A stretch of 64,000 nt of DNA from Reclinomonas americana ATCC 50394 (GCA_048213135.1 PS015550.1:1-64000); one strand, 5' to 3'; shown: positions 76-63,949, counted from the first letter of the stretch. Numbers and translations: made by a program. Notes: a model not told the origin generated them from the letters alone.

Positions 76-1256
76 GCCATCATACCTCGTCATCAATGCC
101 GACGAGAGTGAGCCGGGCACGTGCAAGGATCGCGAGATTATGCGACACGATCCGCACAAGCTGGTCGAGGGCGCGCTGCTGGCCGGTGTGGGCATGCGTG
201 CACGCGCAGGTAAATCACATCCTTCCCTCCCTCCCTCCCTTACTTCTCCCCTCTCTTCTCACACACTATCGCAGCGTACATTTACATTCGCGGCGAGTTC
301 TACAACGAGGCGCTGAACCTGCAGCACGCCATCGACGAGGCCTACAAGGCGGGATTGATTGGTCGCAACGCCTGCGGCAGCGGCTACGACTACGATGTGT
401 ACCTCCACCGTGGTGCTGGTGCGTACATTTGTGGCGAGGAGACTGCGCTGCTGGAGTCACTCGAGGGCAAGCAGGTGCGTGCGAGCGTGCACATGAAAGG
501 AATGCCATAGAGTGCGATTCTCACTATGTTCTGTGGCTGCTGCGCAGGGCAAGCCGCGCCTGAAGCCACCGTTCCCAGCCAATGTCGGTCTGTACGGTTG
601 CCCGAGCACTGTGACCAATGTGGAGACCATTGCCGTGGCCCCGACCATTCTGCGTCGGTTTGTTTCTCGAGTCGAAGTTGTTTCTACTGCTGCTGTGTGT
701 ATCACGCCCCAACACCTTCTCGTGTTGTCTGTCCAACAGTGGTGGTGACTGGTTCGCCGCGTTCGGACGCAAGAACAACAGCGGCACCAAGCTGTTCTGC
801 ATCTCCGGCCACGTCAACAACCCATGCACAGTGGAGGGTACGTCCATCTGTGTTTATGTGCCTTTGTTGCCACCGTAGGTACTCATTCCCTTTATCCCGC
901 AGAGGAAATGTCCATTCCTCTCCGCGAGCTCATCGAGAAACATGCCGGAGGTGTGCGCGGTGGCTGGGACAACCTTCTGGGCATCATCCCCGGTGGCTCT
1001 TCAGTACCTGTCCTGCCCAAGTCCATTTGCGACGATGTGCTGTTGCGTACAATATTCACGCGTTTATGTTGTGTGTCTCCTCTTCCTCCTACTCTCCGCT
1101 CACCACCTGAATCTCACTAGGATGGACTTTGACGCCCTGAAGGCCGTCAACAGTGGCCTCGGCACCGCCGCCGTGATGGTCATGGACAAGTCGACCGACA
1201 TTATCAAGGCCATTGCCCGCCTCTCCAAGTTCTACAAGCACGAGTCGTGCGGCCAA

Positions 1257-1289
<33 letters not shown>

Positions 1290-1558
1290 ATGCAGCTGAT
1301 GGACCGCTTCGTCGAGGGCAACGCCGACGTGCGCGAGATCGACATGCTGGATGTTGCGCAGCGCTTGCACTTCGTCGCTCTTATGTGTGTTGTGCTCATC
1401 TCCGGTTGCTCTGCCAGGAAATCTCTCGTCAGATCGAGGGACACACCATTTGCGCTCTGGGTGATGCTGCCGCATGGCCAGTGCAGGGCCTGATTCGTCA
1501 CTTCCGCCCCGAGATGGAGGCGCGTGTGAAGAAGTTCCAGGCCGCCCACCGCCGTTGA
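76..1558 (+). CDS. NDUFV1: NADH:ubiquinone oxidoreductase 51 kDa flavoprotein subunit (5' part outside window; 7 exons seen)
   Basis: Spliced motifs [71 protein letters not shown]; stop TGA 1556-1558. Confidence 0.97.
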
Positions 1559-2046
1559 GCGTGATCTCGGCGTGTCACATCTTCCGGCCTGTTTCTGTTT
1601 GTCTTGTTTTTCTTGTGGACGTGGTCGGTAGATGTTGGCTGGTTGTTGTTGTTGTTGGTTGGTTGGTTGGTTTTTTGCTGCCGAGTTGGGTGGCGTGATG
1701 CGCACACTCGCACGTCCGCACTCTGGGGTTGCGGGTGGGAATGGGAGTGAGAGAGCAAGTGGTGGATGGGAGTGCGAGATTGGGCGACGGCGGTAATGAT
1801 GGTGAGCCGGAAGAATTGATGATGGGCACGCTCGCCCACTCTGGCCACATTGTTGTCGTCGTCGTCTTCATCCTCTCCTCTCTTTCCCCACCCTTGCGTC
1901 CTTCCTCCTTTCCTCCTCTCGTAATCCTGGTGGTGTGTGTGCGTTTGAGCTCGTGTGTTTCTCGTTGCTTCCGTCTCGGTCGGCATGTGATGCTGTGGTG
2001 TATTGCGAAAATATGCGAAATCCGTATGTTACATTAATACTATTGA

Positions 2047-8209: not shown

Positions 8210-11200
8210 ATGACAGACTTTCGCGAGAAGCTTTTTGAGGAGTTCCTCAACCGGCACATGGCGCCGGAGCTGCGGTGAGGTCCCAATTGAAGTCAACAGT
8301 GTGTCGACAAAAGTGACTCATTTGGTTTGATCTTCGGACAGCGACGTGATTCACGGCGGCGCACTGGACCATCTCATGCACGAGGTGTTTGAGGACCTGC
8401 AGCACCGCACTATCTGGGTCGAGCACGATGAGAGCATGCTTGTGCGACATTTCATGACACCCAAGGTTTGTACATGTCGAAAAAAACAGATAATGCATGG
8501 ACACTTTGGGCGAATGCAAACCCCTTCCTTTTTCTTCGTTGTTCACACAGATTGACAACGCTCGTGAGACAGCACTCTTCCGCTCCTCGGGACTGGCCGA
8601 GTATCTGCAAGCGGAACCTGGTCACACGCGCAAGGCGCCTGAGCGATCATTCCTCACTTTGATTAAGGACTTTAACAAGCATCGAGTGGAGCGCATCCTC
8701 ACAGCCATGCTGGACAACGAGGAGTTGCATGCCACATGCTGCACCTTTCTCTGTGTCTCCTCACGCACTCACGAGTTCTCCTTGCCGCGCGCGCATGCAG
8801 GATTGTCAACTGGGACTACTCGTTCGGCCCGTATGCCGGTTTGTTCGTCGCCTATTTTTTTTTTTGCTGTCGTTCTCCAACTCACGACTGCCTTGCTCCT
8901 CTGCAGGTGCATTTACCGATGAGATGAACAGTCGCCTGCGAGACCTTCGTGACGCGGAGGAGATGCAGGCGTACATTGGGCAGAACCCGACCACCGCCAT
9001 TGACATGTTCCGTGACGCGTGGGATCGCCTGCGCTTGCAGGAGACGGACGAGTTGCGTAATGCAACGACACGATTAGCAGCAGCTACAGTGCTCACCCTT
9101 CTCGCCCCACAGCATGCGTTTCGACGAGGCGCACGCTCGCGCGTCGTGGACGCGCAAGTACCGGACCACGTGCTGCGTGGAGCGACTGCCCTCCGAGTAC
9201 TCTTCCATGGTGCGCTTCTTCTCGTTCTCTTGGTTTCCACCCCTCTGATCATGAACTTACTCGGGGAGATGACGACACAGCGCCTGGTCGGAGCTCTGCG
9301 TGCTGCCGTCGCGCCGCGTTTGGTGCCAGTCGAGCGAGTGGTGGTGACGACGGGTGCACGTACGCAGCAGACCAACGTGCAGCCGCGCGTTTTCATGACT
9401 ATCCGTCCCGTTGACGACGACGAGGACAGCGTGGATCGCGCCGAGGAGGAGCTGTGCGAGCTTGCGCACGAGATCTCCACCTCGTGGACGATTTTCGAGG
9501 GCCAGCAGCGGTACGCCTTCCTCTCAATCCTGCTTTCACACTGTACCCTCCTTCTTCTCATCGTTCTCCACGCGCAGGCTGCTGAAGGTCACCATGAACC
9601 TGCCCGACATGTTCACGTGGGTGGGCGAGTACATGCAAGAGGTCCGTCGTGCACTGGCCGCACAGCAGCCACGTGCGCGTGCGCGAACGGCGGCTCGAAC
9701 GGTGGTCGCCGGCAGCAGTGGCCAGAGTGGTGCATCCGCCTCGGCTCCTGCAGCCACCATGCCGGCCAGTGCCGCGCCTTCCGATCGCACCGCTCGCGTT
9801 CCAGCCGTCGCAGCTGCGGTGCTGCCGGTGTCGCTGGACGACCACAGCCCGATGGTGTTCACCTTTGGACCGGCCCAGGAGCACGAGTCGAGTGGCTCGC
9901 TGTCGCTTTCGGACGCGGTCTCGGACGATGCGCAGCCTTCGGCCGCTGATCACGATCGTGCTCTCACAGACACGCTGTCGCCGATCGTGAAGCAGCTGCT
10001 CGACGCCAACATGGCGAAGCTGCAGAGGGCGCCGAAGACCGTATTGTGTGGTGGGCGTCTGGAGGTGTGCGGCACTGGCCACAAGAAGAAGGACCGTGAG
10101 TTTGTCCTTGGCCAGGGCAGCTACGGCTCGGTGTACTTGGGCTACTGGCAGCCGGGTCTGCGCGTGGAGACCAAGGTGCCGGTGGCCGTGAAGCTCATCC
10201 CGAAGGACTGCGGCATGTCCCTTAAGCACGTCGATGAGGAGATCCGGCAGAGCCAGGCGGTGCCGCGTGGCCGCTCGGTGGAGATCTACGCCTCATTCGG
10301 CGCCGACGACGAGCAGCTGGTGGAGCTGTGGGACGACTGCCACGTGATTGTGCAGAAGCTGTGCGCCATCAACTTGGACACGCTGATCACCGAGCACACG
10401 GCGAAGATTGGTCTCACGGCGCGCCGAGCTCTCATGGCTGAGGTCTTGGACGCCGTCACCGCCCTCCATTCCCTGGAGCCGGCGGTTGCCCACCGTGACA
10501 TCAAGCCCAACGTTGCGTAACAGCACGATGTGACTCGCTCATTTCTCTGTTCACGAACATGATAGCTAACGATGGTGTACCTCGTTGCGATGTGCAGAAC
10601 ATCCTGGTCGACCTGCAGCTGAACATGTACGTGCACGACAATGAGCTGCTGAGCACGTCGCTTCACTTATACTCATCCTCTTGTTTTTCACGCTGCAGCA
10701 AGCTGTGTGATTTTGGCATGGCACGAACGGTGGCCGGGCACGATCGCTCCACGATGCACACCATGTGGCAAGCTGGCCAGTCGGTGTTCCAGGCGCCCGA
10801 GGACATCGAGGGCGATCATCGTCGAGCCACGTGGTCGGTGCAGAAGGAGTCGGACGTGTTCAGCCTCGGTGCCGTCCTCTTCTTCATCTGGACCGGCGGT
10901 CTGCATCCGCTGGCGTGGACAGAGGAGCGCGATGGCACACTGCAGTGCGTACCAATTTTTCCGTACGCAGACGCAGAACCTCTCCCCGTTCCTCACTTCA
11001 CTCTCTCTCTCTCTCTCTCGCACACACAGGGGTCAGCCACCGAGCTTCCTCGCCGATCGAGCGCAGTTTACGCGCCGCATGTACGCCTTCCAGAACGATT
11101 CAGACACATTGCGCGTCGCTCACCGGTATTGGGAGAATGCGCTGAACAACGTGCCACTGTTCATGCTGCTGCGAGAGATGCTGCGACCCAAGCCGGTCGA

Positions 11201-12947: not shown

Positions 12948-13015
12948 AACCCAGTACGTAGAGAGCACAGGATGCTCGGTTTCCAATGTAGACTCATTGT
13001 AGACCAATCTCATAC

Positions 13016-14886
13016 ATGCGAAGGCCGCGCTCGTCGCCTGTTGCGACTGTGCTCCTCCTCTTCCTCCTCTGCTTCTGTTTCCTCCTTTCACCCTCGCCCT
13101 CCAGCGCCGACGCACTTGGTGACACTCGCGACTGCGATGCATCGTTTCCGTGGTCGCTCTTCACGCGCGCCAGCTGGCACCTGCTGCGTGGCGAGTCTCT
13201 GTCGTCGTCCGCCTCTCACCGCCCACCACACCATGGTGCAATGGCGCGCATCTCTGCTCCCTTTCGATTCCGTCGTCAGTGCCTCGCTGCATTCGAGTCG
13301 TGGTTGTCGCTCTCCGAGGTGTACATGACGCTGCAGTCGCCACGCAGCGGGCCCACACAGGTGCTGCATGCCGATGCCCCACTGGCGGCCGCACCACCTG
13401 GCGTCATTCGACGACACCCTGCATTCGATCGGGTGAGGAGGCGTGTGATCTTCAGAGACAAGTGATCGACTCACTCACTTGCACACCGCTGCGCACACAG
13501 GTGTCGGTGCTGTACGACGCTCCAGTGCGATTACCGACGAGTGCACGCGGCAGCAATGTCGGTCCACCAATGCTCATGCGATCGCCGACGCTCATGGAGC
13601 ACCAGCTCACCGACCCGTACCCGTCGTACTCGATCGTGGTGGAGAATGCGGTGTGTGTTCTCGCCCTCTTCCTCTGCACGAGCTGCGCGTGACCGTGACG
13701 TGCCATGTGCAGCTCGTCACTCCAGACGATGCGGTGTTCACCAAGGAGCACGTGTTGCTGGCACGTTCGTGTCTGCCGCGCGTGCTCGAGGCGCCCCGCA
13801 CGTGGGAGGCCACTGATGAGGTGCTGTTGGCCGACGCCGTGCTGCCGCTGCTGCAGATTTTCTCCGACGCACTGTTCCACATCATCATCGAGTCCCTCAC
13901 GCGCCTCATGCAAGTGTGGGACGAGGTGTACCCGGATCGCAGCATTGTGGTGCTCACACGACGGAGCACGTACGGGTCGCAGCTGACTCTGGATCTGTTT
14001 GAGGCTGTCGGCATTTCCGGCGATCGAGTTGCGCATGTGTGGTGCGGAATTTTTTGCACTCGGGATCCTCCATTCCTGACTGCCCACAGATCGTCCTCGA
14101 TCCGCCGCCGGTCATGGCACGCAAAGTGTACTTTGTGGCGGGTACCTACTGCACGCAGTCGCAGCCGTCGCTGTTGCACGAGATTGCTCGTGTCTTCAAC
14201 GTGCTGCACGGCGACATGGTGCGCGAGGTCATGCGAGAATACTGGAACTGTTGCGTCCAACGTTGCTGGTGCTGGTCAGCATGTGTATTCGCTGCTGAAT
14301 CGCACACGTGCAGCACGGCGCACTGTGCAACTGCGGACGCCGACGCCGAGCGGGCGTCCTCTGCGGCGTGTGGTGGTGATTGAGCGCAAGGGCGAGCGTG
14401 AGTTGGTGCAACACGACGAGGTGAGTGCTGTGCTTCTTTTCTTCATGCCTCCATCCTCCGTTGTGGCAAAGCTCACGTGGTGGCACACACTCATAGATCA
14501 TCGCCATGATGCAACGCGATTTCCCGCACTTTGAGATGGTGTTGTTGTCGCGCAACGCCACCGCCATGCAGGGAATCGTCGAGGTGGCCATGGCCGACAT
14601 TCTGTTTGGCGCGCACGGTGCGGGGTTCTCCTATCGCGCCTTTATCCGAGGTCGTCCGTGCGCCCACGTCGAAGTCATGTACCACGCCGGCTTCGCGTGG
14701 GGCATGACGTGGAATCCCGGTCTGGTGTTGATGGCCGCCGCGCAGGGCTGCAAGACGTTTGTGCACTTTGACGAAAAGGGCACGCAGATCAGCGCGTTGG
14801 ATGCACCAGTCGCCGATATCCGCTGGCTTCTGCAGCAGGCCGACGACTGGTTGGCCACGCAGGATGTGCGCAGGCCTTTCTCGTAG
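13016..14886 (+). CDS. Glycosyltransferase family 61-like, copy 1 (N-terminal signal/anchor)
   Basis: Hydrophobic N-terminus; LFHIIIESLTRL; IERKGERELV; ADILFGAHGAGF motif. Confidence 0.78.
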
Positions 14887-25400: not shown

Positions 25401-26558
25401 TTACACGCACGCATGCAGTTTGGACACGCTGGCCGCCTTGCACACAAACAAGGTGACCCACCGCGACATTCGGCCGTCGCACATTTTCCTGGCGGGCTCC
25501 GAGCGTGAGCCGGAAGTCAAGCTGCTGCACGTGGGTCTTCGCGCCGCACTCACCGGTCTGGAGGCCACCGAGTTCAACACGGTAGGCGACCGTGATGCCC
25601 GCCGTCACCGTGTTCCCAATGCGCACCTCATTCGCGTGTATGCCGGCGCAGATTTTTGGCGCTCCAGAGCTGCTGCTCTGCCGCATGATGTACGACAGCG
25701 ATATTTGGGCGGCCGGCATGGTCATTCTGTCGATGTTGCAGAGTCGGGGTCAGCGTCAGGAGCCGCTGTTGTTGGGCGACCGCACCAGCATCTTCCGTGC
25801 CATGTTCCAGGTGCGTGGGACACTTTTCGGCCGCTTCGTGTGTCGGTGCGGTTTCTGATTTTCTGTCTGTGGTGCAGCTGCTGTCTGTGTCCGGCGATGA
25901 AGCGTATCACTTTTCAAAGAACTGCGGACTCACCGACGAGGATGCCGACAAGTATGCGCAAGTTGCCGACGCGGAATCGGCCAAGTCCGCTCACCGCCTG
26001 CGTGACGTGCGTGTGTCGGAACAGTGTCGGACGCGACCCTTCACGCGTTGTTCATCTATCTATCGGTACAGGTCATTGAGGGCGCATCGGCACGCGGTAT
26101 CGACGTGGTGCTCATGATGCTGGCGTTCTTGCCGGAGAAGCGGTGAGCTCGCGCGGCATTTGACGTCGCACCGTGGTGAATGGTCTCTAATATTGTTGAT
26201 GCTCTCGTCAGTGCGACGCTGCACGAAGCCATGCAGCACTCGTTCTTCTCGCAGTTCAATCTGGTACCCAAGACGCCGGCACTCCCGCCACGCGCGGCTG
26301 TGGCGACCACATTTAGTTGCGTGCAAGTGTCTCTTTCGCTTTGCAGTCGTCACGCTGAAAGAAGGATTTGCAGCTCGCGCTGTGCCTGCCGTGGCCGTCG
26401 CTGCCCCGCCACCGCCCGCTGCTGCTGCTGCGCCTGCGGTTGCCGTGGCCGCCCCACCAGCTGCTGCTGCTGCTGCTGCTGCTCCTGCTGCTGCTTATCC
26501 GTCTCCTCCACCCGCCCCGCCCGCTGTGGCTGTTGCTGTGGCGTCACCGCCAGTGGCC
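22491..26558 (+). CDS. N-myristoylated WD40-repeat + coiled-coil + pseudokinase protein with Pro/Ala tail (3' end in gap)
   Basis: MGQKQS start; WD-like GGTDGLVRLW, AGYDNGNVTQFD, TSDGLLHGWN; kinase fold HRDIRPSHIF, KLLHVG, APELL, DIWAAG. Confidence 0.65.
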
Positions 26559-46149: not shown

Positions 46150-49100
46150 CTTCGTCAATGGCGAACGACGATTGTGCTGGTCATTGCGCCGCTGATCTTC
46201 ACGATCATTCTCATCATCTTGCAAGCGGGTCTGTCGAATCAAGCCGGCACCAATGGCGAAGTCGGTGAGCCTCACCACTCTCTCTCTCGCCACACATCAT
46301 CACTCTGTGCTCACTCTCGCTCCGCCAGTTCGCTCATTCCCCGTCACGACCGTGCCCAAAATCCCCAACTGCTATCCCAATCCAACGACCGGTCGCTGCA
46401 CGACAATCGCCTACGCGCCCAACAACGATGCCGAGCTGACGCAGGCCATTCTGAACATTGTGGCGGAGCACGGCATTCGTGACACGCCTGTGGCCTTCGA
46501 GTCTGGCGATGTCATCAACACGTACCTCATCAACAACCGCAACACGACGCAGGCGGCGTACATTTTCAATTCCGCCTTCACCTCCAACGCCGTCGACTAC
46601 ACCATCCAGTACAACACGACGCAGTACTGCCGCGACATTTTGTGTAATAACCCGCAGCAGGACATTGTGGTGCGTGGTGGTGTGGTGTGGTGGTTGCTCT
46701 TGTCCAACACACTCATCATGCCATGCAGTTGCCGATGCAAGTCGCCATGAACAATCAGGTACGCTCGTGTATTTTTTCTTTTTCTGGTGGTTGTCGCACA
46801 CTCGCTCACTCTGCGAAAACGTAAACTCACAGCTCTGGTTGCGCCACTTTGGTCGCTCCAAGGCACGGCACTTCATTTTTGGTCTCTTTCCCCCCGTTTC
46901 ATGCGCGTCTCATCATGATCTCCACTGCGCAGACGACTTCCATGGCTCAGTACCCGCGTGCGGAACTGTACCGCGTAGATGGTACGCGGCAGGTTGCCTG
47001 TTTTTCTCGCGCTGCGGAATCGCTCACACGCGTGCGCACAGTGATTGCCAACTTTGGCATCTTCTTCTACTTCCTGGCCTACATGTTCATCTTTATCGTC
47101 ACTCTCGGACAAATCGTGCTGGAGAAAGAGAACAAGCTGCGCGAGGCACTCAAGCTGGCGGGCCTCGGAGTTGCGTGTGTGTGTAGACCCCATGCTGTGT
47201 TATTGAATGAGCTCACCGCGTGCTGTGCAGAATGGCTCCTTCTGGACGTCGTGGCTTTTGCAGCAAATGATTCTGGTGACGCTGACCACGTTTATCATTA
47301 TCGCCGCCGGTGCTGCCTTCCAGTTCCAATTCTTCCTGAAGAACAACTTTGGCACGTACTTTTTCCTGTTCGAGCTCTTCGGCCTCAGCATCGTCATGCT
47401 CAGCTTCACGCTGTCGACCATCATCAACCAGTCGCGCATTGCCAGTTGCGGACCGCCGACAGCCACCAGTCATGAGACTCGCCCTCACTCAGTTCTGTTT
47501 CGCAGCTCCAATCGGCTTTGTGCTCTTCATCGTGTTCTACTTTTTCGCATCGGTCGCCGGCAACATCTACCCGATTGTGTCAGAAGGTGACGCGGAGGAC
47601 GTGGGGAGAACAGTCACAATGCTCGAACTGTAATTGCTTATCTATGTTTGCACCATGCATCAGGCTGGCGTCAACTGTTTGCTTTTTGCCCTCCAATCTT
47701 GTTTGCCAAGGTCTGTTTCCGCAGAGGCGCGTGACCAATCAACTGCTCGTCTCACTCGCTGCTGTGCTGTAGGGTCTGAGCGACCTCGGCACGGCCGCCA
47801 CCAGCGGACTGAGCAGTGGCATCTCGTTCAGCCGCGTCGCGTCATACACTGAGTGAGTAGCATGCTAGGCCACTCCATCTCGGCAGCGACTTACGTAGAG
47901 TATCACCACGCAGCATCTGGCCCCTGAGCAAGATTTACGGCTGGCTGATTATTGACACGATCATCATGGGCATCATTTGCTGGTTTGTGTGCAAGTCACC
48001 ACTCCTTGTGTGAGTTCTCTGCTCACCACGTCTCTTTTCTCCTCACTTGCAGGTACCTGGACCACGTCGTGGCATGTGCGTTGTGTGGCACATCGTTTGT
48101 CGGTGTCTGGTGTGTGGTACTGACACACTTTTGTCGTGTGTGGCGCAGCACCCTCTGGCGCCAGTGACCGCTGGTACTTTTTGTTCACCAAGTCGTACTG
48201 GACCGGCCGCGCGTCCTCGCACAAGCGCGAAGTGGAACGCGAGCGCCCGGGCCTGCCAGTCTCCGATGCGGTTTGTCTCCTTTTCTAAATTTTGCAGCAT
48301 GCCTTGTCACCACCACCTGGACTCATCGTGCTCGTGTGTCGCAGATGCGTGAAGACGAAGATGTGCGCGAGCTGCGACAGCGCTTGATGCGCGAGCCGCG
48401 CGCTAATGAGGCCAACGCGCCGCCACTGTATGCTGTGCGCGTGGAGAACCTCATCAAGCAGTTCGGCAGCGGCCGCACTGGCTACGCTGTTAAGCGCCTG
48501 TACATGGCAGTGCAGCCGAATTCCCTATTCTGCTTGCTGGGTCCAAATGGCGCCGGCAAGGTATGTCTCTTATGTGTCTCTGTGTTCACGTGTTCGTGAG
48601 CTGACTTTCCCTTCAGACCACCACCATCTCCATGATTACGGGCCAGATGCCACCGACAGCTGGCTCGATCGAGGTCGACGGATACGATATCTACATGCAG
48701 TTGCCGGAGATTCGTCGCACCATTGGCGTGTGCCCGCAATGTTGCGTCTCTGCTCCCGTGTTTTTCACGCATGAACATGACGCTGACTGGCGTGGTCTGG
48801 CCCGCTGCAGTTGACATTTTGTGGGAGGAAATGTCGGCACGTGAGCATCTCGAGCTGTTTGCGGGACTGCGTGGAATGTCAAAGAAGCGCATCCCCGATG
48901 AGGTGCGCGAGCGACTGGAGCAAGTCGGTCTGTTCGATGTGCAAAACGATCGTGCCAGCTCGTTTAGTGGTGGCATGAAGCGTCGATTGTCGGTGGCCAT
49001 TTGTTGCGTTGCTGTACTTGCTCACCTCCCCTTTCCTCGGCGATTGCTAACTTTGATGTGCTCCCTCGCAGCGCTCATCGGCAATCCGACTGTCGTGGTG

Positions 49101-50123
49101 CTGGTGCGTCCCCCTTTCGTCTTTATTTTGCTTTTTGTGCTCTCTGCTTTGCCTCACACCTCACTTTGTAGGATGAGCCGACGACTGGCATGGACCCTGT
49201 CATGCGCCGCAAGGTGTGGGACATGATCGAGGAAGCCAAGCAGGATCGCACAATTATCTTGTTGCGTTAGTACGCCGTGGCATTCCTTTTATTGCACGCA
49301 TGGCGTGCGCTAACAGCCTCTTCTTCTTCATCCCTCCGCAGGACCACCCACAGCATGGAGGAGGCCGACATTCTCGGCGACTCCATCGGCATCATGGCTC
49401 AAGGCCGTCTGCGATGTGTTGGTCCATCGCTGCGCTTGAAGAACAAGTTCGGCGCCGGCTACCAGATCACGCTGCACTGCGAACTCACTCGCATCCACGA
49501 TGTGCGCGGACTCATGCATCACATCTTGCCGGAGGCGCGGCTGGTGCAGGAGCTGAGTGGCTTCTTGACGTACAACGTTCCACGTGCATGCACGTCTCGT
49601 CTGCCTCAGGTGTTCCGCACTCTCGACGAGTACACGGCGCAGTACGGACTGCGTGACATCTCAGTGCGCCTGACCACACTCGAGGAGGTGTTCTTGGCCA
49701 TTGTGGCGCGCGCCAATGCCGACGAGGCGGTGGTCGGCCCAAGCGCAGCTCCGCAAGCCGTGATTATGGGACCCGATGGACAGGCCATTCGCACCACCAT
49801 CCAGTTCGACGTGGACGGCAACCCACAATTGGTGCCGGAGAACGGCGGGCCCGCCATCACTGGACATCTCGCCGCACAAGGTACCGTCACACTTGCGCGA
49901 ATGCGTCTTTTGGTGGCATGATCCTCTTTGCTGACTCAGCTGTGCCCCGCTAGCCGCCGCCGCTATTGGATTGAGTCCACCACAGCCGGCTGTTGCACCA
50001 GGACCACAGCAGGTAGCACCATATCCAGGGCCTCAGCCGAATTCTCGTCCTCAATTTGCACCCTCGCCCTCGCCCTCGTCTGCGTCCGCTGCCGCACCAC
50101 CATCACCAGCCGCACGGCCATAA
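46150..50123 (+). CDS. Half-size ABC transporter, subfamily A, copy 3 (5' end in gap)
   Basis: [80 protein letters not shown]. Confidence 0.92.
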
Positions 50124-50476: not shown

Positions 50477-51120
50477 TTCTGGAAGCGCTTTGTGGTCACT
50501 GCCGGCCGCGGTGCCACTCACTACACCCAGGAGACCCTGCTGCGCCTGCTCGCTCGTCTGGGTGTGGCCGATGCGGCCGACAACGCCGAGGCTGTTGCGT
50601 GATTTTTCTGCCATTCCACCGCGTCTGCCACTGTGTTGCCTCACAATCAATCAATCATGCGCAGTGGTTCCGCGCCATGGACAGGGACCGTGCTGGCTTT
50701 GTGGATCTGCGCCAAGCCGTGTTGGGCTTTGCTGCGGCCGATCCAGGCACGGCCCACAACATTGGTGGTGTGCCGTTCCAGGTCCGTCTCGGCTACATTT
50801 TCGCCTTTTACAACAAGAAGAGTACGTGATTTCGACACTCTCTCTTGTACACAAGACGAGCTGACATGTCCATGTTGCGCAAATCGGCAGGCGACGGTAC
50901 TCTCGATCGCCAGGACATCAAGGCGATTGTGGCCGCCGGCAAGAGGCTGAAGGGTGAGGACGTGACGCCCGAGTCCCTCGATCGTGGCACTCGCGACCTC
51001 GTCGAGCGCATGGGCGGCAAGGATCGGCTGTCCCTGGAGCAGCTGCACCAGTTTGTCTCGAACGGCACGATTCGCGGCACGTCGCAGTTGTTCCGTGTGC
51101 GCGCATATCCGTTCAAATAA
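50477..51120 (+). CDS. EF-hand protein (calcineurin B/NCS-like layout; 5' end in gap)
   Basis: WFRAMDRDRAGFVD; VRLGYIFAFYNKK..GDGTLDRQD; stop TAA 51118-51120. Confidence 0.65.
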
Positions 51121-54709: not shown

Positions 54710-57700
54710 TTAAATCTCACGACCCTCGTCGTCCAAGTTGCGCGTTGCGAATCTAAAGAGGGAGCCCGCATTGGTGGTTGTCGAGCTGGGTGGACTCTGC
54801 GTCGTCCGCGGACTCTGCGTCGTGCGCGGACTCTGCGTCGCGGGTGGACTCTGCGTCGGCGGTGCCGCGGCAGTGGCAGGGGCCGAGCCGAAGCGTTCCA
54901 CTGGCGGTGTTGGTGAAGGTGTTGGTGACGGCGATGACGCCTCACTGGCGGCGAGAATGCTGGACGCCTTGCGCAGATCCACCGATTGCACCGCGCGTCG
55001 CGACGACGGCGCGGCAGTGAGGTCGCCGAACGGATTGGAGCTGCGGGCACTGCTGTGGCTGCTCGGTGGCGTCACCTGCATGCTGGCGTGGTGCGCGCGC
55101 ATACCGAGTCGCTGAGACGACGTTTCTGACGGCACCAAGAGTGGCGGAGGGGCGCGCGTGGTTGGGGGTGACCGTGGCATGCTGCCCGTGGCAGAGAGGC
55201 GTGAGCTGTGTCGCGTGTGCACCAGTGGTGGCGGGGTCGCCGGTGGCATCTGGCCGGGACTGTCGGATCGTGCCTACCAGACAGAACGTGAGTGTGGAGG
55301 GAGATCAGCTCGAGCAGCAGAGAGCACCCACGCACCCATCCACCACCAAGCAGTGCGCCCTCTTCGTCGTCTTGCGAGTTGGTCGACATGCGTCGGTCGC
55401 CGAGACCAGTCGTCGTCGAAGACGGTGGCGGGCACACGACTGGGTCGGTGGAGGCCGAGATGCTGGAGGCGCCGTGGGCAGCCATCTGCGAGCACGTGTC
55501 AGTCACCGTACGTGCGTGTGTTCGTGATCGATGACAACGAGTGAACGAACAGCTTCCGCCACGTAGGATGCTGGCAGCTGCACTTGCACGACGAGGTTCG
55601 TCGGGGTCTTTGCCGCCGTGCCAACGTCCGCAGTGCCGGCACCCGCGACCACGCCAGTGGCCCCCGGTGCGGCGCTGGAGAGGTCGTCGAGGGTGATGGA
55701 CTGCATCAGCATCGCAGAGTGAGGGGACGTAACCGTCAAAGATGCCATGTGCAGAACGCAACCGATGGGAGACCACCGTGGTGGTCGTCGATGCTGCTGA
55801 TGCGCGTGGCCTTGCCCTCGCTGTCCACCACTGACCAGGTGAGCTTGGCGCGGCGCTTCTGACGCTTCTGGACCTGTGGCGATGAACGGAAGAGAGGATG
55901 AGCTCGTAAAAGAGAGTGACAGAAAGGTGCAAGTGCACACACCAGGCGGATGAGGAACTGTACAGCGACTAGACCGCCGATACACAAGAGCAGTAGTGGA
56001 GCGACAACGGTCTGTGAAGGAAACAAAAGTCAGAAAAAAACTGGCGACAGCGGAGGATCGAATACGAGAGTCGCACAAGTGGGATCCTGAGTCTGCGATG
56101 AGAGGAGACCGGAGTGAGAGCAGCGGAGCGAGATCAGCAACAAGACTTGACGCAAAGAAACGAAACAGTCTGTGCACAGAACGAGGGCACGTGAGTAGCC
56201 GGGGATGAGAGCCAAGAGAGAGAGAGACAAAGAGTAGGATTCACCCGTATGGAATCGGTGCAATGAACCACACCATCCATTCGGCACGGCGCTGCAGCTT
56301 GTCGACCAGCTCCGATTGTTGTTTCTGCGAAGAGGCGGAGAGAAGTGAGTCATGTCGCCCTGAAAAGAAATCAAAAGAACGTGGCGAACCATCATCAGTG
56401 TGGAAACCAAAATGTACCACACCAGCCTGCGCCAGAACAATCAGTACCACTTTCCAAGCTTGATTCTCTCCACTGCCAACACACGCAACGTGGTCAACGT
56501 GATAAAGTACGAGATGAGCATGAAGCGATCGGCAAATGTCTGCGCAAACGCAGCTCGCAGGTGAGCAAAGTGCATGCGACATGAACTCATGCGAGGCGCT
56601 CACCATGGTGCCCGATGGCACGCCCAAGTTGTCTGCCGGTAGAGGGGATGGGGTGAGAGAGTGTAGATAAAAACTCGTTGACGAACATTCACGAAACAAT
56701 GATACATGACGAGGGCCTGCGAAGAGGCGGAGAAGTGAGCATGAAGTGCATGTGACACGCGATGGCGTTAACGACAGCACGCAACGACAAAGGAGTTGGT
56801 GACGAGACCAAACGACGTGGACAGGTAGTCCTTGTACGAAAGCGAGAACGACGACAACACAATCAACTGTCGTGCGCACATGCAGTGAGCAGCATAGCAG
56901 CGACACTGGGAAGGATGAAGGGAGAAACGCACAACAATGAATATCGGCGGCAGCAGAGTCTGTGGAAGCGAGAGTTAGTTGTGGAGGAGAGGATTTGTAC
57001 ACGCACGCCATCCACTTGCCTTGGAGAAGCACTTGAAGTCTGCGACAGCGAGTGAGTGAGTGAGTGGCTATCTTCGAAAAGAGCAACATGAGAATGGCGA
57101 CGACTCACATGGTCTGTTGATGGGCATAATGTACTCGAGCATGGGCGTGGTGGCCAGACCGCGCTTGTACATGGTCATGCCTTTGAACTGGACCAGCGGG
57201 TCGTCAAACTCCCAACCAGGAATGACTGAAAAGATCCGTGAGCACTCTGACGAAAGCGATCTCTCTCTCTCTCATCGCCTCACGCAACTGATATCATCAG
57301 CGTATCCACTGGCCTCGGGTATGAACTCCATATGCGTGACGCCATTCACCCAAAAGCGAATGTTGAGTCGCTCCACCTGCGTCACACGCAAGCAAAATCA
57401 GGCACTGGCATCAGTCACAGTCACCGCAGTGCCGCAGCGCCGCAACATCAAACGGAAAGTCTTGCGCTTCCAGCGGCCAGTTCAGCGTCGTGCGACAGAT
57501 GGTGTAGCAGTCGGAGGGAAAGTACGTGCCTTTATGGACGATCATGAGCCGCTGCAAAGACAACTGCAAGTGCTGCTGCAGTGGAGACGCAACATCGCAC
57601 CCACAAGCCCGCATTGTCGACCCACGGGTCCTGTGATCCATCCGCGGCCGGCATCCAGCAGGCGTTCTCCGGTTGCGGAGTGCGAAAGGTGAAGACGAGA

Positions 57701-57925: not shown

Positions 57926-58242
57926 GTTGTGTGTGTGTGTGTGTGTGTGCAAAGAGTGTGTGGAGTGCAGCCACCCGCTCACTCCAAGGTGGAGGAGAAG
58001 ATCGATGGCCAACTGACTGACTGAGTGTTTTTTCGCAACAAGGGCGCAGCGAATGCTTTTCGGAGTTGCATCTGAGGCATGACAGCAGCTGCATTCGTGC
58101 TTGCATCGGCCACGACACGTACAGCAGAATCGCAGCACGTCGCGCCTGCTGAATCTTTCTGCTGCTCAACCCCGACACCACCTCTGTCACGCGCGTGTGT
58201 GTACGTGTGCACGCTTTCCTCACCTCAAGAACACCTCCTGAC

Positions 58243-59254
58243 ATGCATTCCAGCTTTGCTCGACTGGCGGTAGGCCTGTCATTGTTCTTGCTTCCCTCAG
58301 TCAGTCATTCACTCAGTTGTCGACAGATCCCGTGTCGATCGCTGGTGACGGCCGCCGTTGGTCGCATTCTACGCGTTGTCGGTCACACCCCGACTGCGCC
58401 GAGCATTCTTCCGCAGTCAACGTTCGCCACGCGGTTGCGTTTCCTGCTTGCTGGCTGCGGCACTCTTTTTGTTATTTTCCTTTCCTTTCCGTCCCTCCTC
58501 CTGACCTGTCGCGAAGAGAATTCTCGGTTTCGAGGAATCGATTCGCGTGGTGGTGCTCACACGCGGAAGCAGGTCGTCGTATTCCTTCCCGTTGTTTATT
58601 GCCGCTTCTACGAGAGCATTTGCCACCACCTCGAAGGCTCAACAGTCTGTCACCAGCAGCAGCACCACCGCCACCAACAAGATGTCGATGCAGGCCTCGC
58701 AGCAACCCGACGTGGTCGACTTTATCATCACCGACCACCAGGTGATGAAGGACAAGCTGTCGGAGCTGAAGAATGCGGCCAGGGAGCAGCGCCAGTTGCT
58801 GCTGGAGCAAGCGGGCGCCATGCTGCGCGCGCATCAGCGAGCCGAGGAGCAGCACGTGTACCCGGGCCTGGCCAATCAGGGCTCGGAGGAGAAGGGCCTG
58901 ATCCAGCACGCTTTCGACGAGCACCGCGAGGCCGAGGCACTGCTGATGCAGCTCGAGGCATGTTCGATCGACTCGGCCGAGTTCGACAAGGTGCTGGGCG
59001 AGCTCGAAAAGGGCGTGCTGCACCACATGAACGAGGAGGAGACGAAGGTGCTGCCGACGATGCGACGCGAGCTGGAGCGCCAGCGGCTGCTGGACATGGG
59101 TGTCAAGTTTGAGCGCCAACGCTTGGCCGAGGTGGCCGCGGAGGCGCCGTCGGCCTCCAAGTTGTCGGCCGCCTCCACCGCCACCGCAGCGCTCGGCGGA
59201 ACAGCAACAACGACCACATCATCGACCACGACCTCCTCTCGCGGAACCGCCTAG
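58243..59254 (+). CDS. Hemerythrin HHE cation-binding domain protein with putative mitochondrial presequence
   Basis: DH..HQRAEEQHVYP..EH..HHMNEEETKVLP. Introns 58270-58326 and 58434-58572 join an acid-free R/S/A-rich leader in frame. Confidence 0.85.
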
Positions 59255-59313: not shown

Positions 59314-60588
59314 ATGTATCCGCCGGAAGTTGTCCCACTCGTTCTTCTTCGTGCTCGAGTGGAGACGGGGATGCGTCCGTCCAGCGTGAAGGCCGTGAAT
59401 GCGACACTTGCCGTTGTGCGAGCCAAGCAGGGTGAGCTGCTCTCATCCTTTGTCTGTGGCCGACTCACGCACTGAGGAAGAGACCGCGACACACAGCTGT
59501 GAGTCGGAAGACGCGATGGATGTACATTGTGTTTCACACGATCGTGTTTCTCGCCGCCAGTGCCGTGCTCATCTGCACGGTCTACGATGACGCAGAGAAT
59601 GCAGAGATGCGGTGCGTCTCTCTCTCATGATCACACTCACATCAAATCACTCTTCATTCTTACACTCATCAGGGGACTCATGGAGCGCGCACGACAGTCG
59701 TTCAAGCAGGCCACATCGCTGCTGATGCAGCCGCATGTGGCCTTGTTTGTCATTGCAGCAGTTGCGGGCGGAGCGACAAGAGTTGTCTTTCATCATCATT
59801 GTCGCAGAGTCACTGACTCGATCCGCACCCTGCAGTACGCACTGTGGATTGTCTCTGCCGCCACCAAGCAGTTTGTGCTGTCACAGGTGGGCGCTACTCG
59901 CGTTGTTCTATGTCATGGCGGGCACTTCTCACTGTGTTTATCCTTGTAGCCGTGGAAGAGCGTCCTCGGCAAGTCACCCAAGGTCTGCTCCTCCGACATC
60001 TTCCACTGTCACTTGTTCGCTCACTCCCTCCTTGCCGGAAACCAACAGTCGGAAGTGGAGCGCGTGGCGCACGGCATCTCGCTCTTCGTGTACGCCATCG
60101 GCCTCATCTTTGTGCTCAGCAACTTCGGTCTCGACACCACCGTGTTGACCTCCTCGATGGGCATCACCGCCGTGGCCGCGGGCTTTGCGTTGCGCGAGTT
60201 TGCCATGAATGTGATTTGCGGACTCTTCCTGTTGGCGTACGACCAGTACCTGCCGTTGCGTCCACCACGCTGTTTATTGTGCGTTCTCCATGTGCTCACG
60301 GTGTGCACGTGTGTGGGGCAGAGGCGATCGCATCAAAGTCAAGGATTTCGAGGGCATCGTGTCGAAAGTGGTGCGTGACAGCAGTCCATCGCCCCCTTCA
60401 CAACGCTGACTCCCGTCGTGCAGCATCTGCGCTACACAGTGGTGCAAGGCGTCGACGCCAAGGACGGCCAGCTCTTCTACATCCCCAATCGCGACATGAC
60501 CGAGTCCATCGTGACCCTCATCAGCCGCGCTCCCGACGCCGAGCCAGCGCCCTCTCCCTCCAGTGACGAAGGCAGCCCATCACAGTAA
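59314..60588 (+). CDS. MscS-family mechanosensitive channel (short C-terminus)
   Basis: LTSSMGITAVAAGFALREFAMNVICGLFLL..GDRIKV..EGIVSKVHLRYT..FYIPN; start uncertain. Confidence 0.8.
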
Positions 60589-60600
60589 ACAAAAAAAGAC

Positions 60601-61152: not shown

Positions 61153-61255
61153 TGTGAGAGCAGGGTTACCTTTGGCGGGGAAAGTGCCGCGCGGTAACCC
61201 CCATTCACTTTCTTTTGCGCCACTTGTTTTGTGTGCTATCCTCGCTTCCGTTATC

Positions 61256-62742
61256 ATGTCGTTCGGCATCAAGGGTTGCGTTGCGGGTAGAGGAGAAGAG
61301 GGGGAGGAGCGATAGAGGAGTGCAATGCAGTTTGTTTGTTTGGTGTGAAATGGCGCTCTCTCTCTCTCACAACTTTGTGCCTGTGTCTGTGTGTGCATTA
61401 GTTCTGGGCACTCGCGGTGCGGTGCAGGCCGAGTCTGCGCAGTTCACAGTCGGCTCTGCGCGTCAGAAGGCCTTCTGGGGTCAAGTGGTGACGCTGTTGC
61501 GTGAGGAGTGCCATGCTCATGACGCACACACCTCTGTCTCCCTCTCTCTCTCTTTCTCGCACCCAACTGACACACACACGCACGCACACACGTTGCATGT
61601 CTTTGCTGCTGTCTCTCTCTCACACACTGTATGTGCAGGCCAATGGGTGACGGTGCACTGCTGGTGCAGTTGTTTGACGATGACGATCAGGAGGCTGGTG
61701 AGTGTGTGTGTGTCTCTCTCTCTCTCTTGTGTACATCAGTGTCAGAGCAAGTGAGGGATAAGAAAGGAGAGAGAGAAGAGAGAGTTATGTTGCATGGTGA
61801 TCGTATTTGAAGTGCATTGCATCGCGTGTTGTATGTGTGTGTCGTGTCTTTGTGTGCGTGCGCGTGTGTGTGTATGTGTGTGCGTGTGCGTGTGTCTGTG
61901 CATCGCATACTCAGCCTTCTTCCTCTTCTTCTTTCTCGTTCTTTTGTCGCAGCTCGCGTGACCATTGACCTGCACACTGTGGCTCCCAACTCGAGCGACT
62001 GGTTCGACCTGAGCAACGGCTCTGGCGCTGTGCAGCTGAACTTTGAGGCCGTCGGCGGTTGCGTCCTCTGTCTCTTCGTGATGATGATGATGATCGCGCA
62101 CCTCTCATGACTCGTCTGGCTAATGTAACAGGTGCCGTGGCCATGGACGACGATCCGTTTGGCGCACCGGCGGCCTCGGGCTCTGGCTTCCAGCAGGTCG
62201 ACTCCGAGGAGGAGGAGGAAGAGGAGGAGAGCGAGGAGGAGGAGGAGGAGCACCACAGCTCGGAGCCAACGCCGCTCATGTTGTGGCAGGAGAAGCACAA
62301 TGCGGAGCTCATTGAGCGCGCCACCGCCGCGCGTGCCAAGCGCGACGAGCGCAAGACCGGCGCCCGCGACTGGTTGAAGAAGTTCTACGAGGATCGCGAC
62401 GGCAAGCTGTCTGCCAAGCAGAAGCTCAACCGGTGCGCTTTACATTTTTGGTAACCATTCATCCCTCCCTTGCCGCCCTTCTCAACCCCGCCCCGCATGT
62501 GCAGCCAACAAAACCAGGCTCTGGTGGAGAAGATCAATGCCAACCTCGGCGTTGGTCAGATCTGGGAGCGTGTCAGCAACCTCATCAACATGGGCGCCAA
62601 CTCGGCCGGTCGCAAGGACGTGGCTCGCATGCGCTCTGTGCTGCTGCAGGTGAAGAACTCGACTCCGGCTCACTTGGCGCGTCACGACGCCGTCGCCGCT
62701 GGCGGCCGTGGCGGTGCTTCGGGCTCGGCCGATCTGTTCTAA
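61256..62742 (+). CDS. Clathrin light chain with N-terminal C2-like domain
   Basis: CLC pattern LWQEK..KKFYE..NR..IWERVSNLI..KDVARMRSVLLQVK. Upstream exons give LLVQLFDDDD..VTIDL..DWFDL..GAVQLNF. Confidence 0.78.
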
Positions 62743-62930
62743 GCTCTTTCTCTCTCCCTCTCTGTGTGTTTTTTTGTGGCAAATATGGTCTTTTTTAAGC
62801 GCTGTCTCGTCGTGTGCGTGTCTTCCTCCTCCTCCTCTTGTTCTTCTTTCATTTTTACGTGAGTACACTTGTGCACAACAGACTGTGGTTACCTCCTCCT
62901 TTCTCCTCCCTCTACTGTGTCAATTTGTCT

Positions 62931-63949
62931 TTACTTTATCTTTGAGTATCGCGCCAGGTCGTCGAGACTTCCGTAGCGCCGCTTGACCAGATTGCGATGC
63001 GCGGACTCCAAGAAGCGCGCCTTGCGGTCAAAGTCGAGCGATGTGCGGCTGCGTGGCAGGCCGTCGTGCATGCCTGGCGAACTGCGGCCACTACTGTTGC
63101 CGCCGGTCTCGGTCTGTGAGCCGGCGCGCGCACTTGTCTCCGACGGCGGATCAGCTGGCTCTGGCGTCTCGGCGCGCTCCTGCTCCGGTGTCGGTCGGGG
63201 CACGAAGAAGAGCTGCAGACGACCGCGGGCACTCTGTCCACGCGGCAGACTCCACAGCAGGTGGCCGAAAACCAGCGACACCAGAATGACGCACACTGAG
63301 ACGACGGCGGCGCGCCACGGCAGCGAGAGGATCGCCACCAGAATCGGCACGCACACCCACACGGCACCGGAGGAGATGCGCTGGAGGCGACGAGCCAGCG
63401 GTGCGCGATTGACCTTGGTCAGTGAGCCCACGTAGCGGTACCACGCAAAGCTGGTGTGACAAAAGAAGTGAGCAGCCGCACCGAGTAGGGGAGAGAAAAA
63501 GGGAAGCAGTGCACGCACCACAGCGCAATGAGCAGGTACACGCCGAGCACGAAGCGATCAATGTAGGAGATGTTGCTCGACGGCACGTCGAGGTTCCAGT
63601 GGAACAAGATGAGACCCCTGCCGCAAGAGAACCAGGCGGTCAGCATGCTGCAAGAAGCCGGCCGACAATCGTCATGTGCGCGCGTGTGTGTGTACGCAAC
63701 AACAGCGAGGCACTGCACACCGAACTGCCGACGCGCACGTAGCTCTCCGGCGGCAACGTGAACGGCGCCGTGACGATAATGACCAGTGCGATCGGTGGCA
63801 GGAAGAACTTGATCATGGCCTTGAACAGCGGTCGGGTCACCGGCACGGCAAAGGTGATGGCCGAGATGGTGTCGGCGCCCCGATACAGGCCACTCGGCCC
63901 GCTGATCGACACCGCGTCTCGATCAATGTCAAAGGTCGGCAGATACACC
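62931..63949 (-). CDS. Pentameric ligand-gated ion channel-like subunit 2 (5' part outside window)
   Basis: VTRPLFKAMIKFFLPPIALVII (M1), ISYIDRFVL (M3), M4 plus extra hydrophobic helix; aligns with subunit 1. Confidence 0.65.

Follow-up and report, generated by a model that had tools for sequence, protein, structure and literature searches.

The window analyzed here is a whole 64,000-nucleotide (nt) stretch of Reclinomonas americana ATCC 50394 (GCA_048213135.1 PS015550.1:1-64000). It is nuclear, intron-dense and GC-rich (G+C 47-61% across 4-kilobase (kb) bins) and carries NDUFV1, two ABCA transporter genes and two protein kinase genes among others (Table 1; gene identities come from Pfam searches of open frames and exons). 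The introns of these genes are short, with a predicted median of 66 nt and a middle half of 61-73 nt, and recur about once per 165 nt of coding sequence. Their acceptor is (G/A)CAG, and some 18-19 nt upstream of it lies a branch-like motif, most often CTCAC and then CTGAC or CTCAT. Their 5′ splice sites fall largely into two classes. In the first, which we call ordinary, G stands at position +5 of the intron, as in GTGCGT. In the second, which we call shifted, T stands at +3 and G at +6, with no G at +5, and its leading form is GTTGCG. Throughout, a slash marks the boundary between exon and intron (or, in peptides, the position of the intron).

Introns were called with a generalized hidden Markov model gene finder written for this analysis, which combines codon scores and frame tracking with GT...AG introns of 40-300 nt. 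The first run was trained iteratively, used models of acceptor, composition and length, and had a donor model consisting of GT only; it returned 206 introns, in which the top donor hexamer was GTTGCG (35, vs 17 for GTGCGT). When a first-order donor model was added, the finder returned 263 introns (GTTGCG 53, GTGCGT 31). Because the fixed G and T stand between positions -1 and +3, this donor model is blind to any link between those two positions. A signal-free pass and an expectation-maximization run with too mild an intron penalty (up to 418 introns, merged genes) were dropped as noisy.

By donor, the 263 predicted introns divide into 127 ordinary, 61 shifted and 75 that belong to neither class, many of the last probably being false predictions. 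Fifty-three of the 61 shifted donors are GTTGCG. An initial annotation, made from the DNA alone, had placed GTTGCG in an abundant second class; it is in fact the single commonest donor hexamer and no minor form. That annotation's estimate of about 60 shifted donors, about 5 of them after an exonic G, agrees closely with our count of 61, with 5 having G at -1. Of the four forms it listed, GTTGCG is amply represented, GTTTCG and GTTGAG are rare (three predicted donors each), and GTTACG falls outside the hexamers predicted at least three times. The shifted class occurs on both strands, in 20 of 26 gene models and at least once in all 18 models that score at least 60, which bears out the earlier suggestion of a mainstream splicing mode in this region. 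It makes up between 23% (61 of 263 predicted) and 33% (16 of 48 validated by homology, as described below) of introns.

The gene finder over-predicts. It places two introns past the NDUFV1 stop and a spurious multi-exon gene in the repeats at 35.5-36.2 kb, and its models are wrong for those repeats and for the EIPR1 region. Eighteen of the 61 shifted predictions depend on the donor model: the one at 1554, which follows the NDUFV1 stop and is certainly false, and those at 3991, 4221, 4753, 5120, 7920, 9052, 13040, 16497, 17204, 18103, 18722, 30555, 38823, 46838, 56166, 57288 and 57593. One further prediction, T/GTTCAGAA with its donor at 38959, was made both with and without the donor model and belongs to a low-scoring gene model; we consider it dubious and have kept it off Table 1.

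The heptamer GTTGCGT is itself overrepresented. It occurs 51 times on the two strands, 3.6 times the 14.32 +/- 3.89 expected from 100 dinucleotide-preserving shuffles, the highest of which held 23 copies, so that none reached 51. In the gene models, 36 of the 51 copies are donors, 4 are antisense, 3 fall within exons and 1 within an intron in the sense direction, and 7 are in DNA that is intergenic or scores low. The corresponding hexamer totals in the window are 96 for GTTGCG, 17 for GTTTCG and 4 for GTTACG. Copies of GTTGCGT on the + strand that the models do not use as donors lie at 53666, 20822, 22663, 26316, 37322, 41037, 61275 and 61496, and some of these may be extra shifted-class donors. 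The copy at 53666 is inside the EIPR1-like gene, passed over by the gene finder for a weak antisense model.

On sequence and homology taken together, cleavage is placed exactly 5′ of the G in GUUGCG, giving GT-AG introns. The initial annotation had likewise put the cut at GT and not one base later, and that placement is supported by a frame test, by the NDUFV1 alignment, by the ABCA junctions and by the catalytic loop of the protein kinase. In the frame test, the acceptor was chosen by its own score and distance alone, and codon scores alone set the reading frame, once for the 90 nt upstream and once, independently, for the 90 nt downstream; the readout is the cut position that reconciles the two. 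Among 96 occurrences of GTTGCG, 33 were evaluable, and the cut fell at 0, +1 and +2 in 27, 3 and 3 of them. For GTGCGT (107 occurrences, 21 evaluable) the figures were 17, 1 and 3. The controls gave 27, 47 and 40 for GTCG (983 occurrences, 114 evaluable), 12, 11 and 10 for GTCC (343 occurrences, 33 evaluable) and 46, 33 and 31 for GTGG (908 occurrences, 110 evaluable), and the same test on GTGGCG, GTCGCG and GTAGCG gave no frame signal.

Homology bears on individual junctions. Hand-splicing of NDUFV1 at six junctions, including two with T/GTTGCG donors (1042 and 1353), gives a product that aligns with 0 gaps to each of four homologs: P0139 (349 residues, 85.7% identity), P0124 (346 residues, 86.4%), P0155 (349 residues, 84.5%) and P0127 (350 residues, 83.7%). 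This gapless alignment fixes both donors. P0123 was set aside: its 232-bit score is odd, and the protein is a duplicated bacterial NuoF. For the ABCA genes, peptides of 70 residues around all 71 predicted junctions were compared with 120 homologs. Fourteen shifted-class junctions are bridged by 8-240 alignments without a gap near the junction; five others (30796, 30555, 28898, 46838 and 50594), which lie in unconserved parts, have no spanning homolog. The junctions at 28039, 48741, 49003 and 49261 are each bridged ungapped by 188-240 alignments, and the split codons at 48741 and 49003 give the conserved F and S only with GT...AG, since a cut at +1 alters the residue. The ABCA junctions with at least four spanning alignments and the six NDUFV1 junctions together form a validated set of 48, in which 16 donors are shifted, 29 carry the +5 G and 3 are of other kinds. 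Two donors validated by homology lack G at both +5 and +6, and each follows a G at -1: G/GTAAATC at 210 (+ strand, NDUFV1) and G/GTAACAC at 32678 (- strand, ABCA).

The two classes differ sharply in the last base of the exon. G stands at -1 in 82 of 127 ordinary donors (65%) vs 5 of 61 shifted ones (Fisher p = 2.6e-14), and in the validated set in 22 of 29 (76%) vs 1 of 16 (p = 6.6e-6, 45 junctions). The proposed association of donor class with the -1 base is thus upheld in both sets, although the earlier statement that ordinary donors nearly always follow G was too strong. The claim that A is the commonest base before shifted donors holds in the validated subset (A 7, T 5, C 3, G 1) but fails across all predictions (T 25, A 19, C 12, G 5). 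Measured against exon composition (G 31%, T 20%, A 19%), G is depleted before shifted donors (p = 4e-5), and T (p = 1.6e-4) and A (p = 0.02) are enriched; G at -1 is actively depleted, beyond being merely unneeded. In the 30 shifted introns of phase 0, the base before the cut is a codon wobble position, and 21 of these bases are A or T (24.5% expected; p = 2e-7), which indicates that the preference acts on synonymous sites.

The classes also differ in stringency. Shifted donors have G at +4 in 57 of 61, C at +5 in 56 of 61 and T at +7 in 42 of 61, whereas the equivalent positions of ordinary donors are looser (G+3 in 86, C+4 in 56 and T+6 in 78 of 127). Position +3 specifically takes T, with 53 predicted donors for GTTGCG vs 4 for GTGGCG. 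In other respects the shifted class looks like the ordinary class displaced by one base, as had been proposed: when the donors are aligned on GCGT, the downstream preferences coincide, a T followed by a G being preferred at +6/+7 for GTGCG and at +7/+8 for GTTGCG. All 61 shifted donors show the sequence pattern of a shifted register, that is, GU followed by U+3, with G moved from +5 to +6 and no need for G-1.

Beyond the donor, the introns of the two classes are alike. They share the same length distribution, with medians of 67 nt (ordinary) and 68 nt (shifted). CTCAC is the leading branch-like motif of both, its A lying a median of 19 nt (ordinary) or 18 nt (shifted) from the 3′ end, and the broader motif CTNAY is found in 52 of 61 shifted introns with its A again a median of 18 nt from that end. 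C precedes the terminal AG (position -3) in 103 of 127 ordinary and 52 of 61 shifted introns, and both classes use CAG acceptors. The shared length, branch motif and acceptor imply that one spliceosome serves both. With GT and AG ends, a branch-like motif before YAG, and a reading frame and conserved protein that are restored on their removal, the shifted introns are assigned to the U2-type GT-AG spliceosomal introns of the major spliceosome. U12-type introns, with their distinct RTATCCTT-type donor and branch consensus read by U11/U12, are likewise a second, sequence-distinct 5′ splice-site class that stands beside the main one in the same genes. We rejected a U12-type identity here because branch motif, branch distance, acceptor and length are as in ordinary introns and there is no RTATCCTT-type donor.

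How the shifted donors are recognized is less clear. The reading to which we give somewhat better than even credence is that the U1 small nuclear ribonucleoprotein (snRNP) uses a displaced register at W/GUUGCG(U) donors, W being A or U, and that the 5′ end of U1 is probably specific to the lineage. The recognized GCGU block would have moved one base into the intron, from G/GUGCG(U) to W/GUUGCG(U), and the U1 snRNP would dock on GUUGCGU one position out of its usual register. Intron G+1 would then take the place of the exon G-1 of the ordinary class (GGU-GCGU aligned with GUU-GCGU). U+2 would be mismatched or, equivalently, one of the two U would be bulged, and U+3, G+4, G+6 and U+7 would pair. 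U5 and U6 would later fix the cut at the one GU available, with U6 accommodating one extra U ahead of its pairs with G+6 and U+7. The near-absolute G+4 and C+5 suggest a pairing partner that reads GCG, and the U1 5′ end may carry a G opposite C+5, as reported for Mastigamoeba balamuthi, instead of the canonical ACUUAC. The depletion of G-1 tends to favor the shifted over the bulged drawing, because G-1 would still pair if the U were bulged.

Duplex energies were computed with RNAduplex for two model U1 5′ ends, the canonical one and one of the ACGUAC type. With the canonical end they are -6.1 kcal/mol for G/GUGCGU, -2.2 for U/GUGCGU, -0.6 for U/GUUGCGU and -2.5 for A/GUUGCGU, the last in the shifted register, and CCA/GUUGCGUG folds exactly in that register. 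With an ACGUAC-type end the values are -12.0 for G/GUGCGU, -8.1 for U/GUGCGU, -5.3 for U/GUUGCGU, -8.4 for A/GUUGCGU and -2.9 for U/GUUGAGU. The energies for the ACGUAC-type end, including the drop to -2.9 for U/GUUGAGU, would account for the requirement for GCG.

Several points weigh against a displaced U1 register. U/GUGCGU pairs better than U/GUUGCGU with either U1 end, and yet T/GTTGCG is the more frequent of the two among predicted donors (21 vs 13). The earlier proposal that the +1 G substitutes for a missing -1 G therefore fits the statistics, but canonical U1 pairing (-0.6 vs -2.2 kcal/mol) fails to explain it. A shifted register also predicts A-1 opposite U10 of U1 and tolerance of G, and what is observed is T at least as frequent as A, with G depleted. 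A scan of the window with Rfam gave 0 matches at gathering score, and hence none to U1, U5 or U6 genes. Roy and Bowser (2022, bioRxiv 10.1101/2022.06.08.495308), in the accessible part of the preprint, describe a standard U1 in Thecamonas and in Mamiellales despite a preference for C at +4, which suggests that a C preference alone does not imply an altered U1. Finally, every junction is drawn from reading frames and protein homology, and the counts come from one 64-kb window and an over-predicting gene finder.

Because pairing leaves the abundance of U/GUUGCGU unexplained, there is room for a second U1 variant or for recognition by U6, U5 or protein. Most broadly, the organism might use two 5′ splice-site codes served by one major spliceosome, with either a second U1 contiguously complementary to W/GUUGCGU or one altered U1 that is obliged to work in two registers set by the last exon base, and with a bulged U routine in U6 pairing beside the catalytic center. 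We entertain this only tentatively.

The narrower proposal of two U1 small nuclear RNAs (snRNAs), one reading (G)GUGCGU and a variant contiguously complementary to (W)GUUGCGU, would need no shifted or bulged pairing at all; we consider it unlikely, a little more so than the two-code reading. It is attractive in that the shifted class varies far less than the ordinary one at the G and C of the GCG block, as it would with a dedicated, fully complementary reader, and that GTTGCGT is almost exclusively a donor (36 of its 51 copies; 4 are antisense). A preference for T or A at -1 could add one base pair, and the excess of U/GUUGCGU over U/GUGCGU is left unexplained by a canonical and by a Mastigamoeba-type U1 alike. 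Physarum, moreover, has standard and modified U1 variants (Roy and Bowser 2022, from the portion of the text available). Opposing these points, A and T are both favored at -1, where one complementary base should favor only one of them, the coincidence of downstream preferences after a one-base shift is simplest with one reader, and the Rfam scan of the window matched no snRNA gene.

Recognition might instead occur mainly after or without U1, with U6, U5, Prp8 or U1C/LUC7 reading W-1 and the GCG block and tolerating the extra U. We find this more doubtful than a second U1. The negligible duplex of the commonest form with canonical U1 (-0.6 kcal/mol) speaks for it, as does the composition of the 20 GTGCG donors that lack G at -1 (T 13, C 5, A 2), which suggests a reader of the exon end that is independent of register. 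A study of a human tandem donor in STAT3 (PMC11162779) points the same way, reporting, in its accessible part, that splice-site choice is independent of the exact U1 position and that pairing of U6 with the 5′ splice site is flexible. Nevertheless, the canonical U6 ACAGAGA box cannot pair with G+4, C+5 or G+6 in the normal register, so that a bulge would be needed here too, and it is left unexplained why the inserted base must be T.

Two other explanations fare much worse. One degenerate consensus, in which T at +3 is merely allowed within a position-independent motif and GTTGCG is frequent by composition, could call on the donors that combine T at +3 with G at +5 (GTTTG 12, GTTCG 6 predicted), but it is very improbable given the excess of GTTGCGT over shuffles, the class difference at -1 (p = 2.6e-14) and the dependence between T at +3 and the position of the G (T at +3 with G+5 or G+6, 21 and 61; other bases, 106 and 12; p = 5e-21), which rules out the single position-independent donor model against which the initial annotation had set its two classes. 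Equally improbable is an artifact or mobile element, that is, a T inserted into GTGCG donors by systematic assembly error, which would leave frames intact within an intron and to which the frame and homology tests are blind, or recent introner copies ending in GTTGCGT, for which the very uniform intron lengths might speak: unchanged T/GTGCG donors exist (13) and an error would have to track the preceding exon base, and ordinary-class introns have the same length distribution. An introner origin was also rejected on an all-against-all blastn-short comparison of predicted introns, which gave only tandem-repeat neighbors at 35.6-35.8 kb and CT-rich low-complexity matches, with no shifted-class family.

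A 5′ splice site read outside the canonical U1 register is of an already known kind. The shifted (+1) register was reportedly described by Roca and Krainer in 2009 at atypical human 5′ splice sites. The donors here resemble that register in having GU then U, with the conserved G one position later, no need for G-1, and the cut still at GU; they differ in that the core is GCG, not AAG, and that G-1 is avoided and T is as frequent as A. They differ also in abundance. In the available text of Tan et al. 2016 (PMC4856993), which treats shifted and bulged registers, all validated non-canonical registers together amount to about 1.5% of human sites (3119 of 201,541), in contrast to 23-33% of introns here, where the form is also the commonest hexamer. 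The bulge +2/+3 register (Roca et al. 2012, as given in reference 16 and the Figure 1C legend of PMC4856993) is similar in that one U after G can be drawn as a bulge that restores downstream U1 pairing. With such a bulge, however, exon G-1 would pair with C9 of U1 and be favored, whereas here it is depleted (5 of 61), and the "bulged" base is almost always T.

Comparisons outside humans rest on the accessible part of Roy and Bowser (2022), who describe U1 5′ ends that co-evolved with donors in Archamoebae, (A)ACAAAC with GUUUGU(U) in Entamoeba and ACGUAC with GUGCGC in Mastigamoeba. The ordinary GUGCGU class resembles the Mastigamoeba consensus, and a U1 G opposite C would explain the strict GCG. 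In Entamoeba and Mastigamoeba, however, a single transformed consensus is read in the normal register, whereas here two registers would coexist in the same genes. The green algae of the Mamiellales have strict GYGCGY donors with a standard U1 kept, and share with our window GUGCG-type ordinary donors, a GC-rich genome and short introns. In that same part of the preprint no shifted GUUGCG class is reported for them, and introns here are far denser and the signals less rigid.

Literature searches that combined GUUGCG-type motifs with splicing, with most subscription papers and supplements outside their scope, returned only primers, microRNAs and aptamers and no description of this class, and the papers listed for GUGCGU together with snRNAs held nothing pertinent. 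Among the publications listed for the shifted register, none, judged by titles and abstracts, treats an organism-wide class, and in PMC13326754, as far as its accessible text goes, the register is mentioned only in passing. What appears to be new, as far as we have searched, is a displaced donor that is the commonest hexamer of its region, accounts for 23-33% of introns, is GCG-cored and avoids G-1.

To our knowledge, evidence on cut-site choice with U1 out of register comes solely from reporter constructs and a few human introns. A genome with a quarter to a third of its donors displaced would supply hundreds to thousands of natural test cases. In this window the donor class goes with the base that ends the exon, as can be seen from selection at synonymous positions. 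Such a genome would make testable the hand-over from U1 to U6, the tolerance of the catalytic core for an extra nucleotide, and the co-evolution of snRNAs with splice signals. On the practical side, gene finders trained with a single position-weight donor model would wrongly annotate a large part of this organism's exons. If the reading with two codes were true, no genome before this one would have shown a displaced-register donor as a primary, selected mode and not as a rare exception that is tolerated.

Table 1. Shifted-class introns, ordinary-class comparison introns and genes of the window. "Ungapped" gives the number of ungapped homolog alignments that span the junction; every predicted intron was called both with and without the donor model. 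NBD, nucleotide-binding domain; TMD, transmembrane domain.
Feature	Position	Strand	Donor	Support or remark
Shifted-class intron, NDUFV1	1042..1120	+	T/GTTGCGTA	CDDVL/MDFDAL; gapless alignment; predicted also without donor model
Shifted-class intron, NDUFV1	1353..1417	+	T/GTTGCGCA	EIDMLD/EISRQ; gapless alignment; P0124 has IDMLDEISRQ
Shifted-class intron, protein kinase	10512..10597	+	C/GTTGCGTA	Joins AHRDIKPN/NILVD catalytic loop; Pkinase match stops at exon end
Shifted-class intron, ABCA NBD2	27639..27706	-	A/GTTGCGTC	239 ungapped
Shifted-class intron, ABCA NBD2	27976..28039	-	A/GTTGCGCG	239 ungapped
Shifted-class intron, ABCA	28612..28687	-	G/GTTGCGTC	14 ungapped; one of 5 predicted with G at -1
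Shifted-class intron, ABCA TMD2	29932..30004	-	C/GTTGCGCG	29 ungapped
Shifted-class intron, ABCA	31006..31073	-	A/GTTGAGTG	8 ungapped
Shifted-class intron, ABCA	32154..32229	-	A/GTTGCGTG	60 ungapped
Shifted-class intron, ABCA	32306..32388	-	C/GTTGCGCC	11 ungapped
Shifted-class intron, ABCA	32456..32528	-	A/GTTGCGTC	167 ungapped
Shifted-class intron, ABCA TMD1	35081..35149	-	C/GTTGCGCT	24 ungapped
Shifted-class intron, second ABCA gene	47170..47230	+	A/GTTGCGTG	121 ungapped
Shifted-class intron, second ABCA gene	47445..47505	+	A/GTTGCGGA	32 ungapped
Shifted-class intron, ABCA NBD	48741..48810	+	T/GTTGCGTC	CPQ F DILW (F codon T/TT); 235 ungapped
Shifted-class intron, ABCA NBD	49003..49071	+	T/GTTGCGTT	VAI S LIGNP; 240 ungapped
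Shifted-class intron, ABCA NBD	49261..49341	+	T/GTTGCGTT	IIL/TTHSM; 188 ungapped
Ordinary-class comparison intron, NDUFV1	475..547	+	CAG/GTGCGTG	Gapless NDUFV1 alignment
Ordinary-class comparison intron, ABCA NBD	49104..49171	+	G/GTGCGTC	VVVL/DEP; 239 ungapped
Predicted shifted-class intron	14028..14089	+	A/GTTGCGCA	
Predicted shifted-class intron	14250..14313	+	T/GTTGCGTC	
Predicted shifted-class intron	16039..16103	+	T/GTTGCGTG	
Predicted shifted-class intron	16729..16786	+	C/GTTGCGTG	
Predicted shifted-class intron, TPR gene	20384..20445	+	T/GTTGAGTT	
Predicted shifted-class intron, TPR gene	20521..20584	+	A/GTTTCGTC	
Predicted shifted-class intron, TPR gene	21571..21639	+	A/GTTGCGTG	
Predicted shifted-class intron	25356..25418	+	T/GTTGCGTC	
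Predicted shifted-class intron, ABCA unconserved region	28832..28898	-	A/GTTGCGTG	No spanning homolog
Predicted shifted-class intron, ABCA unconserved region	30719..30796	-	A/GTTGCGGA	No spanning homolog
Predicted shifted-class intron	33955..34012	-	A/GTTGTGTT	No spanning homolog
Predicted shifted-class intron	36535..36612	-	A/GTTGCGCT	Low-scoring gene model
Predicted shifted-class intron	41135..41190	-	T/GTTGCGTG	
Predicted shifted-class intron	44572..44652	-	T/GTTGCGTA	
Predicted shifted-class intron	50594..50664	+	T/GTTGCGTG	
Predicted shifted-class intron	55701..55762	-	G/GTTGCGTT	
Predicted shifted-class intron	56427..56489	-	C/GTTGCGTG	
Predicted shifted-class intron	56633..56697	-	T/GTTTCGTG	
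Predicted shifted-class intron	56717..56785	-	C/GTTGCGTG	
Predicted shifted-class intron	57377..57446	-	T/GTTGCGGC	
Predicted shifted-class intron	57982..58039	-	T/GTTGCGAA	
Predicted shifted-class intron, hemerythrin-domain gene	58434..58516	+	G/GTTGCGTT	
Predicted shifted-class intron, MscS-like gene	60255..60321	+	C/GTTGCGTC	
Predicted shifted-class intron, clathrin light chain gene	62058..62131	+	G/GTTGCGTC	Next exon matches Clathrin_lg_ch
Predicted shifted-class intron	63648..63700	-	T/GTTGCGTA	
NDUFV1	1-1560	+		Pfam
Fcf2-domain gene	about 4.4-7.4 kb	+		Pfam
Protein kinase gene	about 8-12.9 kb	+		Pfam
Gene with two GT61 glycosyltransferase-like parts	13-19.4 kb	+		Pfam
TPR gene	19.6-22.4 kb	+		Pfam
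Second kinase gene	22.5-27 kb	+		Pfam
Full-length ABCA transporter	27.4-35.5 kb	-		Pfam
Second ABCA gene	45.4-50 kb	+		Pfam
EIPR1-like propeller	about 52-54 kb	+		Pfam
Hemerythrin-domain gene	58.1-59.3 kb	+		Pfam
MscS-like gene	59.4-61 kb	+		Pfam
Clathrin light chain gene	61.9-63.1 kb	+		Pfam

Protein searches of sequence collections returned no close relative of the proteins encoded in the window. The best named homologs of the ABCA protein all belong to Amoebozoa (Protostelium, Cavostelium, Nolandella, Cochliopodium, Thecamoeba, Phalansterium and Planoprotostelium), with identities of at most 40% over about 800 residues, which by itself would point, weakly, to an amoebozoan and so to the supergroup of Entamoeba and Mastigamoeba; the initial ABCA query was a read-through of several in-frame introns, and its 29% identity understates the similarity. 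The open reading frame (ORF) that contains the Fcf2 domain had 2 weak protein matches only, and NDUFV1, at about 84-86% identity to many eukaryotes, is taxonomically uninformative. A metagenome scan with the Fcf2 ORF matched 598 pattern stretches, none of which was confirmed, and a pattern of CDDVL followed by GTTGCG hit 3 loci without NDUFV1 homology, which we discarded as chance matches. The metagenome scans thus turned up no relative in which conservation of the donors could be checked.

Some of the introns are themselves open in frame. At 32676-33771 (- strand), an unbroken frame of 293 codons (32866-33744) mimics a single exon for the NBD1 of the ABCA transporter and really consists of short exons. 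The in-frame open introns have their donors at 33690, 33477, 33340, 33147, 33049 and 32905, and the junctions are spanned by 226-239 homolog alignments. Because of such introns, long ORFs are unsafe as exon calls in this genome.

Other features of the stretch concern the gene models. The interval 12972-19404 (+ strand) is predicted as a single gene of 29 exons with two separate weak Glycosyltransferase 61 matches (16958-17203 and 18936-19208), and it may be a tandem gene pair fused by the model. Seven runs of N, 3061 bases in total, break several gene models (2785-3560, 26559-27268, 39267-39286, 41226-41953, 45977-46112, 50163-50411 and 51179-51620). Between the ABCA transporter gene and its neighbor, 35276-36183 consists of low-complexity sequence and tandem repeats, among them a 102-nt unit present twice at 35687-35886 and a CCTTCCC array at 36078-36183.

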